This document shows, one piece after another, positions 28,853 through 57,978 of a stretch of DNA of 64,000 nt (position 1 is its first letter; each line of letters opens with the position of its first letter). The translations under genes were made by a program, and so were the position numbers. Source of the DNA: an uncultured Gammaproteobacteria bacterium (GTDB taxonomy: Bacteria > Pseudomonadota > Gammaproteobacteria > Legionellales > Legionellaceae); assembly GCA_963784615.1 (NCBI GenBank), contig CAWASG010000001.1, forward strand, positions 1,824,046 through 1,888,045, written 5' to 3'. Below the pieces are notes generated by a model. That model was given only the letters and a program-made list of their open reading frames with translations, had not been told where the DNA came from and did not search any database.

Positions 28853-30375
28853 TGAGAAAGAAAAAACCGCTGTCAACCACATCTGAATGGACGTTTGAAT
28901 TACTCAACGACTACGATCGTGAGATAGGCCGTTTGGCCAAAGCATTTAAGCTGAGCACTTATCCCAATCAAATCGAAGTGATCACCGCTGAGCAAATGAT
29001 GGATTGTTATGCCTCGGTTGGTATGCCGATTAATTACCATCACTGGTCTTATGGAAAGCATTTTATTGGTGTTGAGAAAAGCTATCAACGCGGCGAAATG
29101 GGGTTGGCTTATGAATTGGTGATTAATTCCAATCCCTGTATTGCGTATTTGATGGAAGAAAATACGATGGCGATGCAGGCCTTAGTAATCGCCCATGCCT
29201 GTTATGGCCATAATTCGTTTTTTAAAAATAATTATTTATTTAAAATGTGGACGTCCGCGGATGCAATTGTGGATTATTTAGTGTTTGCCCGGCGCTATAT
29301 CAGTGAATGTGAAGAGCGATACGGCATCGATGAAGTTGAGTCTACGCTCGATGCTTGTCATGCCTTGATGAATTATGGTGTTGATCGTTACAAGCACCCG
29401 AGTAGCTTGTCATTGCAAGAAGAAAAAATTCGCCAGCAAAATCGCGAGATGTATTTGCAAACGCAGGTGAATGAATTATGGCGAACGATCCCGCAGGCCA
29501 AAGGGGCGTTAAAAGACATCGAGAAAAAGCGCTTTCCTGAAGAGCCGCAAGAAAATCTGCTCTATTTTATCGAAAAAAATGCGCCACTTCTGCAACCTTG
29601 GCAACGGGAGATTGTGCGTATTGTCAGAAAAATGGCGCAGTATTTTTATCCTCAAGGACAAACCAAAGTGATGAATGAAGGGTGGGCAACCTTCTGGCAT
29701 TATACGTTGATGAATGCGCTTTATGATGAGCGCTTGGTGACGGATGAGTTTATGCTGGAAATTTTGCAAAATCACACCAACGTCATTCGCCAACCGGCCT
29801 ATAATAGCCCTCATTTCAGTGGCATCAACCCCTATACGCTGGGTTTTCATATGATGCAAGACATCCGGCGTATTTGTGAAAATCCTACCGATGAAGACAA
29901 ACAATGGTTCCCGCATTTGGCCAATACAGACTGGCTGACAAGCCTTGATGACGCCATGCGTAATTACAAAGATGAAAGCTTTATCGCCCAGTTTTTATCA
30001 CCGCATTTGATGCGCGAGTTAAAGCTGTTTCATATGGTTGATGATACTCAGAATCCTGAATTATGGATTCAATCGATTCACAACGACCAAGGCTACCAAC
30101 ACATCCGGGAAGCCTTATCCAGTCAATACAATTTAGGTAATCAAGAGCCCAATATTCAAGTCTATTCGGTGGACATAGAAGGCGATCGCTCACTCACCCT
30201 TCATCATACACAACATAATCGCGTGCCACTGGGCGCATCGACGGCCGAGGTATTAAAGCATTTGTACACGTTATGGAAGTTTCCCGTCGTGCTTAAAACC
30301 GTTGATCTGCAACAAAAGGTTACCGCAGAATATCACTGCCCGCCGAAAGCAGAGGCAAGTGGCACGAAACCGTAG
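28852..30375 (+). CDS. ycgB: SpoVR family protein
   Basis: 507 aa, third member of the PrkA-YeaH-SpoVR module. Its TAG stop lies inside the GTAGG head of a mini-REP element. Confidence 0.9.
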   Translation: MRKKKPLSTTSEWTFELLNDYDREIGRLAKAFKLSTYPNQIEVITAEQMMDCYASVGMPINYHHWSYGKHFIGVEKSYQRGEMGLAYELVINSNPCIAYLMEENTMAMQALVIAHACYGHNSFFKNNYLFKMWTSADAIVDYLVFARRYISECEERYGIDEVESTLDACHALMNYGVDRYKHPSSLSLQEEKIRQQNREMYLQTQVNELWRTIPQAKGALKDIEKKRFPEEPQENLLYFIEKNAPLLQPWQREIVRIVRKMAQYFYPQGQTKVMNEGWATFWHYTLMNALYDERLVTDEFMLEILQNHTNVIRQPAYNSPHFSGINPYTLGFHMMQDIRRICENPTDEDKQWFPHLANTDWLTSLDDAMRNYKDESFIAQFLSPHLMRELKLFHMVDDTQNPELWIQSIHNDQGYQHIREALSSQYNLGNQEPNIQVYSVDIEGDRSLTLHHTQHNRVPLGASTAEVLKHLYTLWKFPVVLKTVDLQQKVTAEYHCPPKAEASGTKP

Positions 30376-30410
30376 GTTGGGTTGAGGCTAGGAACCTCAG
30401 CCCAACCCAC
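30372..30410. repeat. degenerate mini-REP overlapping the spoVR stop codon
   Basis: GTAGGTTGGGTTGAGGCTAGGAACCTCAGCCCAACCCAC. The spoVR TAG stop is the TAG of the element head. Confidence 0.7.
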
Positions 30411-44417: not shown

Positions 44418-44603
44418 AAGTGGCCCAGTACCTTCGGCGCAAACAGCGACAATGAACTTGCAAGGTGTGGTTGCGATTGCCCCCAGTACCTTCGGTACAA
44501 ACAGCAACAATGAACTTGCAGGTCGCGTCGTTGCGAGCGAAGCGCGGCAATCCAGAGTTCAGAGCACGGTACTCTGGATTGCCGCGCTTCGCTCGCAACG
44601 ACG
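44418..44603. mobile_element. rearranged MITE-A-derived element between batC and batD
   Basis: Perfect copy of the A core palindrome (44526-44603), preceded by two tandem about 40-bp copies of the A inner arm (CAGTACCTTCGG..CAATGAACTTGCAGGT). Lies inside the Bat operon transcript. Confidence 0.75.
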
Positions 44604-44628
44604 GAAACTGGCAGATTTTATCCAAATT

Positions 44629-51686: not shown

Positions 51687-52439
51687 ATGGTTCATTCCAA
51701 GAAAAAAACGCATTTCGGTTTCCAAACGGTGGCACTAGAGGAAAAAGAAAAAAAAGTGGGGGAAGTGTTTCATTCCGTCGCCAAAAACTACGATCTGATG
51801 AACGATCTGATGTCACTTGGCATCCATCGTTTGTGGAAACAGTTTTCCATCGGCATGAGTGGTGTGCGCGCCGGGCAAACCGTGCTTGATTTAGCGGGCG
51901 GGAGTGGTGATTTGACCCGCTTATTGAGCCAGCGTGTCGGCGAGAAAGGTTGTGTTTACCTCGCAGACATTAATGCCGCAATGCTTGGGGTTGGTCGCGA
52001 TCGTCTAACGGATCTTGGGCTTTTGGATAATATTCGGTTTGTGCAAGCCAATGCAGAGTGCCTGCCTTTTGCCGATGATCGATTTGATTGCATCACGATG
52101 GCATTTGGATTGCGTAATGTGACAGACAAGCAGACCGCACTGGAGTCGATCTACAGGGTATGCAAACCCGGTGGCAAGGTGATGATTCTGGAGTTTTCAA
52201 CGCCGACGATTCCCGTTTTAAAACCGTTGTATGATTGGTATTCTTTTAATTTGTTACCCCGGTTGGGCCAGTTGTTTGCTGGTGACGCAGGTAGTTACCA
52301 GTATCTTGCTGAATCCATTCGCATGCATCCACCGCAGGATGAATTAAAAGCAATGATTGAAAAGGCAGGATTTGAAGACTGTTATTATCATAATTTAACC
52401 GGCGGCATTGTTGCGTTGCACATTGCGCACAAATATTGA
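51687..52439 (+). CDS. ubiE: ubiquinone/menaquinone biosynthesis C-methyltransferase
   Basis: 250 aa with the SAM motif [11 protein letters not shown], and the [34 protein letters not shown] UbiE N-terminus. Confidence 0.93.
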
Positions 52440-52446
52440 GACAACC

Positions 52447-53055
52447 ATGATTAAACAGTACGCGTTAACCGCCCTGCAAAAGGCGACCCATCATGCCCTG
52501 AGATTGGATGAATCCATGCCTGGCAAACTCGCGGCTCTCAATGAGCGGGTGTTAAATATCATTATCACGCCTTTAAATCTTGGTTTTTATATTCAATTTA
52601 TGGATGGGGAAATGATTTTTTTGGAAGAATACGCCGGCGATGTTGATACGACCATTCAGAGTAGTCCGCTGGGTTTCATCCGCTTAAGTTTGCTACCGGC
52701 ATCCAAAGTGCGTTCCTTGTTTAACGACAATATCCGTATTAGTGGTGATGTTGAACTTGGCCAGCAGGTTAAGCAGATATTTGATGAAATTGATATTGAT
52801 TGGGAAGGGCATTTGGCACAGTTTACTGGCGACGTCATTGCCTATCAACTTGGATCTTTTGTACGGAAAGGGATGGCTTTTAAGCAACAAGTTAGCCAAT
52901 CCATGCGGCAAAATATGACAGGTTTTTTACAAGAGGAATATCGAGCGTTGCCCTCTCGTGAAGAGGTTAGCGACTTTTTTAATGATGTCGATGAATTATC
53001 ATTGGATGTCGAGCGTTTGAGCGCTCATGTCAACTTGCTGGTTAACCGATCATGA
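52447..53055 (+). CDS. ubiJ: ubiquinone biosynthesis accessory factor UbiJ (SCP2 domain)
   Basis: Start taken at MIKQYALTAL. Sits between ubiE and ubiB as in the E. coli ubiE-yigP-ubiB order. Confidence 0.75.
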   Translation: MIKQYALTALQKATHHALRLDESMPGKLAALNERVLNIIITPLNLGFYIQFMDGEMIFLEEYAGDVDTTIQSSPLGFIRLSLLPASKVRSLFNDNIRISGDVELGQQVKQIFDEIDIDWEGHLAQFTGDVIAYQLGSFVRKGMAFKQQVSQSMRQNMTGFLQEEYRALPSREEVSDFFNDVDELSLDVERLSAHVNLLVNRS

Positions 53056-54701
53056 AAGCAATTAAACAATTTCTGCGATTACTCTATATTCAGCATATCC
53101 TGGCTAAAAACGGTCTTGAAAGGCTTATTGTGGATATCCATTTGTTCGCCCCCTTTCGTTTTGTTATCTACCTCAATCCATGGAATTGGTTTCGCCGCAT
53201 CCCTTTAACACGAGGGGAAGCACTGCGACAATCATTGGAACAGCTCGGGCCCTTATTCGTTAAGTTTGGCCAAGCGTTGTCAACGCGCCCGGATATTTTG
53301 CCAGAGGACATTGCGCTTGAATTATGTAAGCTGCATGATAGCGTCCCACCCTTTTCAAGCGAGAAGGCGCTGGAGATCATTGCGGCAACATACGGACAAT
53401 CTGCATGGGATGTGTTTGCTGAATTTGATATAAACCCCCTGGCCTCCGCTTCCATTGCGCAAGTGCATGCCGCGACATTGAAAACTGGGGAAGACGTGGT
53501 TGTCAAAATTTTACGTCCCGGCATGCGTGCGGTGATGGAGAATGATATTGGGTTATTAAAAAAAATCGCCAGTCTTGCCGAGCGGTATTGGAAGGAAAGT
53601 GCGCGCTTTAAACCGTGTGAGGTCGTGGCTGAATTTGAGCGTACCTTATTGAATGAACTGAATTTGCAGCGTGAGGCGGCGAATGGCAGCCAATTACGGC
53701 GAAATTTCAATGGGTCGCCGTTGTTGTATATCCCCGAAATGTATTGGGATTATGTGCGGCCGAATATTTTAGTGATGGAGCGCATCTACGGCATTCCGGT
53801 GTCGAGTATTGATCGCTTGCGTGCTCATGGTGTGAATATTAAAAAATTAGCCGAGACCGGCGTGGAGATTTTTTTCACGCAAGTGTTCCGCGACTGTTTT
53901 TTTCATGCGGATATGCATCCAGGTAATATTTTTGTGTCGCTAGAGCATCCTGAAGAGCCACAATACATGTGCGTTGATTTCGGTATTATTGGTACCCTCA
54001 ATGAGATGGATCAGCGGTATTTGGCAGAGAATTTACTGGCATTCTTTAATCGTGATTATCGGCGCGTGGCGCAGCTGCATATTGAATCGGGCTGGGTTGG
54101 GCGAGATGTGGCGGTTGAAGATTTTGAAAGTGCAATTCGCATGGTGTGTGAGCCGGTGTTTGAAAAACCACTCAAGGATATCTCGTTTGCTTTTTTGATA
54201 CTGCAATTGTTTCAGGTGGCACGACAGTACCATATGGAGGTTCAGCCTCGCTTGGTGCTATTGCAAAAAACATTACTGGCTGTAGAGGGCTTGGGGCGGC
54301 AGCTTGATCCTGATCTAGATTTGTGGTGCACCGCCAAACCGTTTCTGGAAAAATGGGTGCGAGAAAAAATCGGTTTCAAGACGTTCATTAAAAATTGCCG
54401 GGCAAATCTCCCCTTTGTAGTAGAGCAACTGCCGAACATGCCGCGGTTGTTGCATGATGTTTTAATGCAAATGAAAGCACAATCGATTCGCGACTTGCAG
54501 AATGCTTCACAGCCGAAGCAGGAAGAGACTAAAACTACACCGCAGTGGCGCAATGGTTTTGCTACGGGATTATTGATTGCCATGTCGGCGATTGCGGGTT
54601 TAAGCTATTTTAAGCTGGTGAATCAGCATGAATTAATGGTTGTTGCTGTTGGCATGGGCGCGCTGGGGGCGTTGGTGATGTTGTTGACCAGCCGTATTTA
54701 A
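53052..54701 (+). CDS. ubiB: ubiquinone biosynthesis regulatory protein kinase UbiB
   Basis: 549 aa ABC1/ADCK-type kinase domain (LGPLFVKFGQALSTRPDILP, HADMHPGNIFV) with a C-terminal TM. Confidence 0.93.
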   Translation: MKAIKQFLRLLYIQHILAKNGLERLIVDIHLFAPFRFVIYLNPWNWFRRIPLTRGEALRQSLEQLGPLFVKFGQALSTRPDILPEDIALELCKLHDSVPPFSSEKALEIIAATYGQSAWDVFAEFDINPLASASIAQVHAATLKTGEDVVVKILRPGMRAVMENDIGLLKKIASLAERYWKESARFKPCEVVAEFERTLLNELNLQREAANGSQLRRNFNGSPLLYIPEMYWDYVRPNILVMERIYGIPVSSIDRLRAHGVNIKKLAETGVEIFFTQVFRDCFFHADMHPGNIFVSLEHPEEPQYMCVDFGIIGTLNEMDQRYLAENLLAFFNRDYRRVAQLHIESGWVGRDVAVEDFESAIRMVCEPVFEKPLKDISFAFLILQLFQVARQYHMEVQPRLVLLQKTLLAVEGLGRQLDPDLDLWCTAKPFLEKWVREKIGFKTFIKNCRANLPFVVEQLPNMPRLLHDVLMQMKAQSIRDLQNASQPKQEETKTTPQWRNGFATGLLIAMSAIAGLSYFKLVNQHELMVVAVGMGALGALVMLLTSRI

Positions 54702-54769
54702 TCATTTTTTGTCATGATTCACCAGAACACGACGTTTGAAAGGTGCCGTATGTACGCGTAGTTTGAGTA

Positions 54770-54887
54770 CGTAGGTTCACCGCCATCAAGTTTAGGAAAT
54801 TAATCGGAGTAGGTTGGGTTGAGCGAGAGCGAAGCCCAACAAAATCGTCATGTTGGGCTTCGGCTTACCAGCCTCAACCCAACCTAC
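54770..54887. repeat. long-form REP with the GTAGGTTCACCGCC...TAATCGGAGTAGG leader, between ubiB and tatA
   Basis: Hybrid arms as at 40075. Confidence 0.9.
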
Positions 54888-54902
54888 ATCCAGGAGTTCA
54901 TC

Positions 54903-55064
54903 ATGGGTTTAAGTGGAATCAGTCCTTTGTCTTTATTGCTTATTTTATTGATTGTTGTGGTTTTGTTCGGCACAAACAAACTTAAAACGATTGGTAGTGA
55001 TTTAGGCGAAGCCGTGAAAAATTTTCGCCGCGCCCTGAATGATGATGGCGATAAGCCGTCATGA
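54903..55064 (+). CDS. tatA: twin-arginine translocase subunit TatA
   Basis: The track ORF (54819..) begins inside a REP element (MSESEAQQN...). True start is the ATG at 54903 after CAGGAG: MGLSGISPLSLLLILLIVVVLFGTNKLKTIGSDLGEAVKNFRRAL. Confidence 0.85.
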   Translation: MGLSGISPLSLLLILLIVVVLFGTNKLKTIGSDLGEAVKNFRRALNDDGDKPS

Positions 55065-55285
55065 GTACCGGTGAGCTTCTTCTCACCGCATTCATTGCAA
55101 TGCTGGTCTTTGGTCCCAATCAATTGCCTACCCTTGCACGTCAGCTAGGCGCGCTGATTAAACGGGTTAATGATTATAAACAGCAGTTGTTTTTATTCCT
55201 CGAAGCGCAAGGCCAGGAACACCAGTTACAGGACAATATAAAAAAAGCGGCTGAAGCGGATGAGAAATACAACTCCCGTCAATAA
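55061..55285 (+). CDS. tatB: twin-arginine translocase subunit TatB
   Basis: 74 aa, LLLTAFIAMLVFGPNQLPTLARQLGALIKRV. Overlaps the tatA stop. Confidence 0.75.
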   Translation: MSTGELLLTAFIAMLVFGPNQLPTLARQLGALIKRVNDYKQQLFLFLEAQGQEHQLQDNIKKAAEADEKYNSRQ

Positions 55286-55543
55286 AGAAATCCAAACAAC
55301 CACAACGGAATTTTATTTCCCATGCCATGCTCAATGTCATCGCCGGCCAAAAAGGCATGGTCTACATTTTGAATTTGTGACGTATTTTTTTTTGGTTGAT
55401 CTGAGGTCTTCATGGATCGCACTCCGAATTTATCGCATAAATATTAGTAATGCAATCCTAGTTTAGATGGTATTTTTTAGGAATGCAATCCGGCCTGCCG
55501 ATCGCCAGCAATTCTGCCGTAAAAGTAGATGCTCAGTAGGATC

Positions 55544-55666
55544 ACCCTCTTCCATTGATGGGAGAGGGTGCCCGACAGGGCGGGTGAGGGTAGTTTAAGT
55601 CGTCATGTTTTGATCTACCCTCATCCGCCCTGTCGGGCACCTTCTCCCGTCAACGGGAGAAGGAAC
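55544..55666. repeat. palindromic element D overlapping the tatC 3' end
   Basis: 28-bp arms GGGTGCCCGACAGGGCGGGTGAGGGTAG / CTACCCTCATCCGCCCTGTCGGGCACC, flanked by two small hairpins (CCCTCTTCC..GGAGAGGG and CCTTCTCCCGTCAACGGGAGAAGG). Confidence 0.8.
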
Positions 55667-56410
55667 TTCGTTGCTAGTGACGGTTCTACGGCGGGGAATT
55701 GCTAATCGACTACCTAGGCCCCTACAAAACCCACCCGATAATATAATGCCGAGTTCGTACAATAAACATAGCGGAATCGCTAGCGTTACTTGTGATAAAA
55801 CATCGGGTGGTGTGAGTAACATGCCGAGGATAAAGGCGGTGACTATCCAATAGGGGCGGGCTTTTTTCAATGTCGCGATGTTCATTATGCCGGTTTTGAC
55901 CAGTAATACACAGATCAATGGCACTTGAAAACACAGGCCGAATAACACCATCATTCGCAAGATAAACTCAATTGTGGTGGTAATTTCGGGCATAAACTGT
56001 ACGCCGAAGGGTACGGCGCTGACAAAAACGTGTAAGACAAAGGGTAATACGCCATAGAAGAAAAATAGGGCCCCCAGACAAAACAAGCCCGTGCTCAGAA
56101 CAATGGTGAAACCCAAGCCTCGACGCTCCTCTCGGTATAAGCCGGGCGCGGCAAATCGCCACCCATGAAATAAGGCCAGCGGTGTTGTTCCGAGTAACGC
56201 CAGATCGGCAGCGAGGGTTATCGGGATGAGTACCGGCGTGGTCATGTGGGTCGCTATCAAACTGTCTTTTTGTGGTAGCACCTGTAACAAGGGCGAGATG
56301 ATCACATGAAAGACGTCTGCAGAAAAGCTATAAAACAATAAAAATAACACGATGAACCACACCGCGATGATGATGCAGCGGCGACGTAATTCTAGAATAT
56401 GTTCAAGCAT
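55595..56410 (-). CDS. tatC: twin-arginine translocase subunit TatC (inverted relative to tatAB; the C-terminal about 23 aa are encoded by palindromic element D)
   Basis: 271 aa, six-TM TatC (LEHILELRRRCIIIAVWF...). It lies on the opposite strand, convergent with tatA-tatB. The tail ...VPSPVDGRRCPTGRMRVDQNMTT is a translation of the 55544..55666 palindrome. Confidence 0.85.
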   Translation of the reverse strand: MLEHILELRRRCIIIAVWFIVLFLLFYSFSADVFHVIISPLLQVLPQKDSLIATHMTTPVLIPITLAADLALLGTTPLALFHGWRFAAPGLYREERRGLGFTIVLSTGLFCLGALFFFYGVLPFVLHVFVSAVPFGVQFMPEITTTIEFILRMMVLFGLCFQVPLICVLLVKTGIMNIATLKKARPYWIVTAFILGMLLTPPDVLSQVTLAIPLCLLYELGIILSGGFCRGLGSRLAIPRRRTVTSNEVPSPVDGRRCPTGRMRVDQNMTT

Positions 56411-56431
56411 AACAGCAAACCTTGTGTTGAA

Positions 56432-56523
56432 GTAGGTTGGGTTGAGGCCCCAAGGCCGAAGCCCAACATCGATACCACGGAGCCGTTGTTGGGCTTCGGC
56501 CTTGGGGCCTCAACCCAACCTAC
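56432..56523. repeat. REP-like palindrome (GGCCCCAAGGCCGAAG subtype) upstream of tatC
   Basis: Full copy. Confidence 0.9.
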
Positions 56524-57308
56524 GCGATACTGTCTTGCACGCAACGAATAATCTCATCAATATCACCGTCCAATGGCAATACATGTGCGGAATGCTCCAG
56601 CCAGTGGATGTGGGCATTGGGTAGGCCGGCAAATTGGGCGGCGATATTGCTGGAGGGTACCACTTCGTCATAGCGACCGAGAAACACATCTGTTGGGCAC
56701 GTTGGGGGCTTGAATTGAAACGCGCGAATCAATGTTAAAATTTCGATGATTTGCCGCACCGGGAGTAGACGATAAGACAGCTCGGGATGGCCTTTTGTTA
56801 GCAGGTTGCCAGCACGATTGGGTATATTTCGCAGTCCGATGGCATGCAGAACACGGGCGGCGAATAACGTCAGGGGCACATTCACACAAACGGACAGTGC
56901 CGGCGCCAGTAGAAACAGATGATTCAAGCGAAACCGGCTGCTCAAATGACAGGCTAACAGCCCGCCTAATGATAGGCCCATCACATCAACCGCGCGATAT
57001 TCTTCAACTAACTGTTCGCAGTTTCGCTCCGCGCAATCAAGCCAATCCGCGGCGCGCGCCTGGGTAAAAGCGGCTACGCTATCACCATGCCCGGGAAGTG
57101 CTGGGCAAATGACGCGGTCGTACATGGTGAACGCCGGCAGCAGCCGGCGATACACGGCAGGGGATGATGAAAATCCATGTAACAATAATAAAGCCCGGTT
57201 CTGACCCTCGCCTTTGATGTCAATCGGCGCCAGCAACCCCGCATCCGCAGCTGCCAATGCGCCTACCCGCGCACCTCGGTGCATATAGAGAAAATCATCG
57301 TGTTTCAT
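56520..57308 (-). CDS. alpha/beta-hydrolase fold esterase/lipase
   Basis: 262 aa with LLLLHGFSSSP, a GLSLGG nucleophile elbow and a C-terminal HSAH. Confidence 0.75.
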   Translation of the reverse strand: MKHDDFLYMHRGARVGALAAADAGLLAPIDIKGEGQNRALLLLHGFSSSPAVYRRLLPAFTMYDRVICPALPGHGDSVAAFTQARAADWLDCAERNCEQLVEEYRAVDVMGLSLGGLLACHLSSRFRLNHLFLLAPALSVCVNVPLTLFAARVLHAIGLRNIPNRAGNLLTKGHPELSYRLLPVRQIIEILTLIRAFQFKPPTCPTDVFLGRYDEVVPSSNIAAQFAGLPNAHIHWLEHSAHVLPLDGDIDEIIRCVQDSIA

Positions 57309-57405
57309 GAGCCCGTCCCAATGATGAGTTTGATTTTTAGAGTATGCTTATTTTTGTACTATAATGAAAGGTAAGAACATCATTAATTTTGTAAGGAGAA
57401 TGATT

Positions 57406-57978
57406 ATGGTCCCTAATCCCAATGACGTCCCTGGTGCTCGTCCCCTAACCCCGTCTGCCGCTCCTGCTCCTGCTCCTGCTGCTGCCGCTCCTGCTGCTGC
57501 CACCACCGCTGCTGTCACCACCGCTGCTGCTGCCGCCGCTCCTGCTGCTGCCACCACCGCTGCTGTCACCACCGCTGCTGCTGCCGCCGCTCCTGCACCT
57601 CCCCTTACACCGCGAGAAAGATGGGATAAAATAAATAAGGCGGAGAGAGATGCAACAAAAAAAAACCCGGGTACTACTCCTGGCGATATATTAAATGATA
57701 TATTCAAGATGGCCCCGCATGCGGCAAAAAATGCTGTTGAGGCTGTCAAAGAGGCTCCGGGTAATATCATAGAGTCTATCCGAAATGCTCCGAAAAATGT
57801 AAAAAATGCTATTAATTCAGTCGCCACCAAAGTTAATTCGTCAGCTGCGAAAGTTAGTGCCGTGGCTGGTGCTATAAACAAGGCCAATGCCGCGCGTCGC
57901 CTTGCGAGCAATATGAAGCAGCCAGCGAATACCAGCATCAAACCACCAGGCGCAAGCCCTAAAGGTCCCCAACCTTGA
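57406..57978 (+). CDS. low-complexity Ala/Thr/Pro-repeat protein followed by a Lys/Asn/Ala-rich helical C-terminal half
   Basis: A TATAAT box at about 57360 is followed by AGGAG and an ATG at 57406. Two exact 17-aa repeats (APAAATTAAVTTAAAAA) are encoded by a 51-bp tandem DNA repeat. The opposite-strand ORF (57348..57941) is the GC-rich mirror and was rejected. Confidence 0.6.
   Translation: MVPNPNDVPGARPLTPSAAPAPAPAAAAPAAATTAAVTTAAAAAAPAAATTAAVTTAAAAAAPAPPLTPRERWDKINKAERDATKKNPGTTPGDILNDIFKMAPHAAKNAVEAVKEAPGNIIESIRNAPKNVKNAINSVATKVNSSAAKVSAVAGAINKANAARRLASNMKQPANTSIKPPGASPKGPQP
57486..57587 (+). repeat. 51-bp exact tandem duplication (GC-rich) within the Ala/Thr/Pro-rich gene
   Basis: GCTCCTGCTGCTGCCACCACCGCTGCTGTCACCACCGCTGCTGCTGCCGCC, two copies. 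Confidence 0.9.

Follow-up and report, generated by a model that had tools for sequence, protein, structure and literature searches.

Introduction

The tatC gene of L. pneumophila is said to lie apart from tatAB, and doublets of repetitive extragenic palindromes (REP), termed REPINs, are reportedly mobilised by RAYT transposases. Protein genes can be lengthened at their 3' ends by repeat elements, as documented in PMC3184786, and Rickettsia palindromic elements (RPE) lie in frame within protein genes (Ogata et al. 2000, cited in PMC3184786). Here we analyse the tatC gene in a 64-kb stretch of DNA (44% GC; positions 1,824,046 to 1,888,045 of contig CAWASG010000001.1, from an uncultured member of the Legionellaceae), hereafter the window, where tatC lies on the minus strand (55595-56410) between two palindromic repeats. 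As judged from comparative sequence analysis, the inversion of tatC is very probably ancient and common to Legionellales-type genomes, and the palindromic repeats arrived later and rewrote the end of the gene.

The convergent tatC order in related genomes

Gene calls, which combined an open reading frame (ORF) listing with Pfam profile matches, agree with an earlier sequence-only reading of the window in that the order ubiE-ubiJ-ubiB-tatA-tatB is intact and that tatC stands on the minus strand, convergent with tatB. An inverted-repeat search likewise recovered the palindromes which that reading had placed on both sides of tatC, namely element D, on the side facing tatB, and a REP doublet at 56432-56523. 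The same reading had seen in these repeats possible agents of a local inversion and had proposed a comparison with relatives in search of a collinear tatABC. For the comparison, one genome per species was scanned and the window proteins were then searched by tblastn on 89 loci, with flanks reaching at most 8 kb on each side of tatC and less where contigs end.

The TatC homologues recovered are Legionella-like proteins of 228-245 aa. In L001-L003 (72% TatC identity) and L004-L006 (70%), which represent two taxa, ubiE-ubiJ-ubiB-tatA-tatB faces tatC and an alpha/beta-hydrolase gene, and the convergent order recurs in the more distant Legionellales L012 (51%), L028 (42%) and L029 (45%). At least five distinct Legionellales with 42-72% TatC identity thereby show the order ubiE-ubiJ-ubiB-tatA(-tatB) facing tatC and are free of palindromes: when the surroundings of tatC were searched for inverted repeats in five convergent relatives, no palindrome flanked the gene and the sole weak pair (in L004) fell inside tatB, and none of the 89 related loci contains the REP head or the D core. 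In L004 the start of tatC overlaps the hydrolase gene and its end overlaps the end of tatB by 6 nt, so that there is no room for repeats at that locus. The ubiE-ubiJ-ubiB order of the window is also present in relatives, and its TatA and TatB are 89-91% and 67-72% identical, respectively, to the L001 and L004 proteins.

Collinear tatABC was found at none of the Legionellales-type loci examined; it was seen only at about 60 non-Legionellales gammaproteobacterial loci, often as the full ubiE-ubiJ-ubiB-tatA-tatB-tatC. At L010, L011 and L013-L022, which include Legionella fairfieldensis and Legionella/Legionellaceae metagenome-assembled genomes (MAGs), there is no tatA within the flanks of tatC, up to 8 kb per side. 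Since at least five distinct Legionellales are convergent without repeats and no Legionellales-type locus examined is collinear, the inversion is very probably old. The convergent-adjacent order appears to be the older form, intermediate or ancestral to the fully unlinked tatC of Legionella.

A model in which the palindromes beside tatC recombined and thereby recently inverted the gene would explain why palindromes occur on both sides of it, and it would accord with collinear ubiEJB-tatABC being the norm outside the Legionellales. We nevertheless regard this model as extremely improbable, and the proposal of a repeat-mediated inversion does not survive the relatives, whose same inverted order without flanking repeats was named beforehand as refuting it. 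That order stands in at least five distinct palindrome-free relatives, one of them with a tatC that overlaps the genes on either side; L001-L006 keep the hydrolase gene next to tatC, and the closest relatives do not carry element D. Moreover, D (55545-55663) and the REP doublet (56432-56523) have no reported similarity and belong to different families, and being unrelated they cannot act as recombination partners. Only the REPs at 54809-54887 and 56432-56523 form a homologous pair, and as these enclose tatA, tatB and tatC together, recombination between them would not yield a convergent tatC.

A palindrome inserted before the tatC stop codon

The TatC core is intact, as indicated by a full-length match to Pfam PF00902 (E 7.7e-54, 183.1 bits against a cut-off of 25.1) in which profile positions 1-208 of 208 correspond to residues 3-213. 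Across 20 aligned Legionellales TatC sequences, 62 columns are invariant, all of which the window protein holds by definition, its own sequence being one of the 20 rows. The conserved core ends with LYELGI(I/V)LS, after which the homologues add 4-16 residues and the window protein 46.

The closest TatC relatives are L008 and L009, with 88% and 79% amino acid identity. DNA alignment shows that a 216-nt block at 55495-55710 (no strand assigned; defined by three-way, pairwise and self-complement alignments and by RNA folding), which holds palindrome D, is absent from both, and that it is flanked in the window by ...GGTA and GCCGGATTGCATTCCTAA. The latter, an 18-mer at 55494-55477 of the minus strand, aligns in L008 and L009 with the ancestral tatC end and is now untranslated; it reads GCC GGA TTG CAT TCC TAA (AGLHS*; 55477-55494), its L008 counterpart reads GTC GGA TTG CAT TCC TAG (VGLHS*), and the same motif is found in L009. 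The alignment to these two relatives together with the surviving old end indicates that the element landed five codons before the native tatC stop. The tatC ORF (called from the ORF listing, the Pfam TatC match and the homologue alignment) now reads 37 codons of the insert (RLAIPRRRTVTSNEVPSPVDGRRCPTGRMRVDQNMTT) up to a TAA that falls in the loop of the hairpin, giving a predicted protein of 271 aa with about 234 native and 37 repeat-derived residues.

The claim of the sequence-only reading that the native TatC C-terminus had been replaced or extended by the repeat is thus borne out by the insertion, with the displaced end still recognisable downstream. Its count of about 23 final codons read through D holds for the D core, within which 23 codons do lie, and falls short of the repeat-derived total of 37.

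In terms of the protein, the last five native residues are replaced by an arginine-rich tail that is predicted to be unstructured. Modelling with AF2 from a shallow alignment gave a structure (mean pLDDT, the predicted local distance difference test score, 67.8) that is helical up to residue 233 and without secondary structure over residues 234-271, with pLDDT below 50 for 232-248 and 254-261. The tail is basic, containing 8 Arg and 3 acidic residues; it would be cytoplasmic, and it is probably tolerated. One could go further and propose that the repeat-encoded tail is an adaptive, functional TatC extension, modulating, for instance, the assembly or stability of TatBC, and a basic tail would indeed suit the cytoplasmic side by the positive-inside rule. 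The tail is, however, absent from every homologue, including those with 88% and 79% identity, and AF2 predicts no structure for it, which makes an adaptive role very unlikely in our judgement.

Removal of an ATPase gene and the integrity of the junctions

Between tatC and tatB the window contains a 44-aa ORF at 55279-55413 on the minus strand (MKTSDQPKKNTSQIQNVDHAFLAGDDIEHGMGNKIPLWLFGFLY). Comparison with L009 by blastn and pairwise alignment, together with the translations, shows this ORF to be the relic of an AAA_14/DUF4143 ATPase gene, in which the first ~7 and the last ~36 codons are fused in frame and about 370 codons have been deleted, also in frame. L001 carries the whole ATPase gene between tatC and tatB, and L009, whose protein matches Pfam AAA_14, has it intact downstream of tatC. 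The stop codon of the relic overlaps the end of tatB. Upstream of the relic, at 55446-55491 on the minus strand, are two near-palindromic 12-mers, GGATTGCATTCC and GGATTGCATTAC, about 30 nt apart; the pair is conserved in L009, where it precedes the intact ATPase gene, and is a candidate operator site.

These junctions bear on a further explanation, in which tatC was flipped or mis-joined at the repeats during assembly. Palindromic repeats are classic sites of misassembly, and the sequence-only reading had listed such an error among the findings that would overturn the arrangement. We found no sign of misassembly, and the adjacencies at both junctions recur in relatives that were assembled independently: the hydrolase gene and tatC adjoin in L001-L006, the tatC-ATPase-tatB junction is present in L001 and its tatC-ATPase part in L009, and the contact of the window relic with tatB is exactly that of the intact gene in L001. 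An assembly error is therefore scarcely credible as the source of the convergent order, and a genuine, ancient inversion remains our reading of the locus.

Structure and distribution of element D

The arms of D lie at 55545-55598 and 55610-55663, each 54 nt long and 85% complementary in the inverted-repeat search. Alignment of the region to its own reverse complement adds weaker arms further out, with which the palindrome spans 55507-55703 (197 nt). When folded as RNA on the tatC strand, 55495-55715 gives -118.8 kcal/mol (z = -11.45 against shuffled sequences), and the tatC stop codon (55595-55597) sits in the central, apical loop of D. A consensus scan found no terminator at D, and an Rfam scan of 54600-56700 gave no family at the gathering threshold, only sub-threshold matches to long-hairpin miRNA families. 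At the insertion we noted a candidate target-site duplication, GTCGATTAGCAATTCC versus GCCGGATTGCATTCC. Because the left of the two copies pairs with the outer arm on the far side of the palindrome, it more probably belongs to the element than to a duplicated target, as far as base pairing can indicate.

Each D arm is made of a small hairpin, CCYTCTCCC-loop-GGGAGARGG, followed by a 23-mer core, GTGCCCGACAGGGCGGRTGAGGG. The exact core occurs at least 130 times in at least 120 metagenome stretches (L090-L209). Among the matches listed, the contigs that carry it range from 38 to 72% GC, compared with 44% for the window, the hairpin half precedes the core in 110 of 130 occurrences, and a second, inverted arm follows 21-96 nt away in 32 of the 114 D-type units with enough downstream sequence. 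Single D arms also match unannotated intergenic DNA on replicons of Sinorhizobium, Rhizobium, Shinella, Xanthomonas and Nitratireductor. From its arm and doublet structure and this wide spread, D is classed as a REPIN-like doublet whose REP-like motif is very widespread. We take it to resemble the rhizobial intergenic mosaic elements (RIME).

To account for an identical D core on such varied contigs, it could be imagined that D arrived recently from a REP-like family in very wide circulation, spread between phyla or served by a shared trans-acting enzyme, with a fresh insertion in tatC and a translated, tolerated tail, but we consider this combined scenario quite unlikely.

Some D-type units adjoin DUF559-like ORFs (LRKNSTPGEIRLW...FRRQ) on contigs of 39-44% GC (L127 2314-2908, L161 595-1046 and L188), and in L127 and L161 the ORF is flanked by two such units. 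A general link of D units with DUF559 genes was rejected, as a DUF559-like ORF stands beside only 4 of 130 occurrences among the matches listed, all on low-GC contigs.

GTAG-headed REP doublets around the tat genes

The second repeat family is defined by a 15-mer head, GTAGGTTGGGTTGAG, which has 21 half-sites in the window against 0.01 expected by chance. Its units form small hairpins and pair up as inverted doublets whose arms are 9-35 nt apart. Of 13 elements in the window, 6 lie no more than 30 nt after a stop codon. Two GTAG-headed doublets, neither assigned to a strand, stand at the tat locus. The one between ubiB and tatA (54809-54887; inverted repeats I5 and I8) occupies a gap of 201 nt, where the L001 genes abut or overlap and those of L004 are 10 nt apart. 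The one between the hydrolase gene and tatC (56432-56523; inverted repeat I2, with 40-nt arms that are 98% complementary) occupies a gap of 109 nt, where the genes of relatives overlap, by 4 nt (ATGA) in L001 and by 1 nt in L004.

In two cases the GTAG head itself supplies a TAG stop: for a 511-codon open frame ending at 30375 (REP 30372-30386) and for the hydrolase gene, which ends at 56520 (GTAG at 56520-56523). With this repeat-supplied stop the hydrolase is 262 aa long, equal to the L001 protein. A crude test for HUH and RF[WY]D motifs in window ORFs of at least 90 aa detected no RAYT-like ORF.

The hydrolase gene (56520-57308, minus strand; Pfam Abhydrolase_6) is the upstream partner of tatC, an adjacency also found in L001-L006, and is probably its operon mate, to judge from the conserved gene order. 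The sequence-only reading had suggested a promoter of tatC's own between 56410 and 56530; a simple consensus scan of this interval found no sigma-70-like promoter, and we infer that tatC is still co-transcribed with the hydrolase gene.

Observations that weigh against the proposed history

Several observations count against an ancient inversion followed by a repeat that rewrote the tatC end, and they concern gene order, the element and the tail. In the closest relative (88% TatC identity; L007 3-1028 and L008 751-922, both on short contigs), an autotransporter beta-domain gene lies upstream of tatC and unrelated sequence follows it, so that synteny around tatC is fluid even within the clade. 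Element D is single-copy within the window, which leaves its mobility in this genome a supposition. As regards the tail, a 46-codon open frame would arise by chance with a probability of about 0.1, and the open frame therefore gives no evidence of selection. In addition, both alternative frames meet a TAG stop within about 10 codons after the conserved core, and the stretch 55715-55745 contains GGG, TTTT and GGGG runs; given these homopolymers and nearby stops, a single-nucleotide error or mutation would switch between the long tail and a TatC of normal length.

The last point allows for a mixed explanation, in which the palindrome insertion is real and the long tail is an artefact of a homopolymer indel error within 55715-55745, the true TatC ending after about 232-236 residues. 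Besides the early TAG codons in the alternative frames, this explanation can draw on a 7-nt indel that separates the window from L008 just upstream of the insertion junction, on the ancestral frame, which at the junction reads GTA GTC GAT TAG and hence a stop, and on the 2.23-Mb length of the source contig, which would suggest a long-read assembly. There is, on the other hand, no direct sign of an error, the sequence is known from one assembly copy, and real frameshifts are common beside insertions. We therefore hold an artefactual tail to be unlikely, albeit less so than the other alternatives considered above, and since the native stop is displaced either way, the C-terminus is altered in both cases. 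The reading of an old inversion with a later, repeat-rewritten tatC end is retained.

Neighbouring genes and other repeats in the window

The genes preceding tatC on the plus strand are ubiE (51687-52439; Pfam Ubie_methyltran), ubiJ/SCP2 (ORF listed at 52408-53055; Pfam SCP2), ubiB/ABC1 (53052-54701; Pfam ABC1), tatA (54903-55064; Pfam TatA_B_E) and tatB (55061-55285; Pfam TatA_B_E), the last two overlapping by 4 nt. Beyond the hydrolase gene, 57348-57978 holds two ORFs, of 197 and 204 aa, that overlap on opposite strands over a duplicated Ala/Thr/Pro-rich block (AAAPAAATTAAVTTAAAAAAP, present twice). Relatives carry at the equivalent position, between guaC and the hydrolase gene, a gene with no Pfam match on the strand that corresponds to the plus strand of the window.

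A third palindrome family, with TTAAACCGGAATCCGAGCCACGACCGTTAGGGAGTGGAGCAGTT arms that are 91-100% complementary, has copies in the window at 62250-62350 and 38791-38891, and a partial copy related to it lies at about 2385-2416 of L009, at the contig end and directly after the ATPase gene. Two further long palindromes stand at 1921-2100 and 44519-44610, one with 77-nt arms (90% complementary) and the other with 40-nt arms (93%). Together with D, the REP doublets and the TTAAACCGGAATCCGAGCCACGACCGTTAGGGAGTGGAGCAGTT family, these amount to at least four unrelated palindromic repeat families in 64 kb.

Discussion

The history favoured by these comparisons would begin with an ancestor in which ubiE-ubiJ-ubiB-tatA-tatB occupied one strand and the hydrolase gene, tatC and an AAA_14 ATPase gene faced them on the other, with translation of tatC coupled to that of the hydrolase gene. 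Later this genome would have been colonised by at least four families of palindromic repeats. The ubiB-tatA and hydrolase-tatC intervals each received a GTAG-headed REP doublet, which uncoupled genes that had abutted or overlapped, and the separate 216-nt block with its 197-nt palindrome was inserted five codons before the tatC stop. The ATPase gene was removed by its in-frame deletion, and the tatC frame now runs 37 codons into the insert and meets its TAA in the loop of the hairpin. The D hairpin could serve as an RNA 3'-end or as an insulator structure between the convergent transcripts.

This locus illustrates that repeats beside a rearranged gene are no evidence that the repeats caused the rearrangement, since here they would have arrived long after it. 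It also records the convergent order of tatAB and tatC as a trait that runs through the Legionellales-type lineage and, from its distribution, probably preceded the fully unlinked tatC of Legionella. At the level of the protein, it offers a base-resolved case in which a palindromic repeat rewrites the C-terminus of a conserved membrane protein while the ancestral stop can still be seen. For annotation, the 271-aa TatC should be read as including about 37 repeat-derived residues, in a frame that hinges on a homopolymer-rich stretch.

Compared with the tat organisation of Legionella, the window is alike in that tatC is not co-oriented with tatAB, and differs in that tatC is still adjacent to tatAB, although convergent, whereas Legionella fairfieldensis and several MAGs have no tatA in flanks of tatC of up to 8 kb. 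The GTAGGTTGGGTTGAG family has the features of REPINs, with a GTAG head, hairpin units, inverted doublets and many copies, usually no more than 30 nt after stops, and D shares the doublet architecture, its two inverted units forming one long hairpin. Unlike REPINs, D is single-copy in the window, where the crude motif test revealed no RAYT-like ORF.

Set beside the RPE (Ogata et al. 2000, cited in PMC3184786), the tatC insertion is again a palindromic repeat of about 100-200 nt inside a protein gene that is read as protein. An RPE, however, is read through and the host protein resumes beyond it, whereas translation of tatC stops in the middle of the element (55595-55597) and the native end is lost; for this reason the tatC case is not RPE-like and matches the 3'-end extension kind. 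With the 3'-end-extending repeats of PMC3184786, it has in common that a small palindromic repeat inserted where an ORF ends pushes the native stop out of use and adds repeat-encoded residues to the predicted protein. Relative to the examples given there, the repeat family and the host gene are different, tatC encoding a translocase component of an essential pathway, and the new stop falls exactly in the apical loop. The TatC tail is a new example of this already documented phenomenon, the repeat-extended 3' end of a gene.

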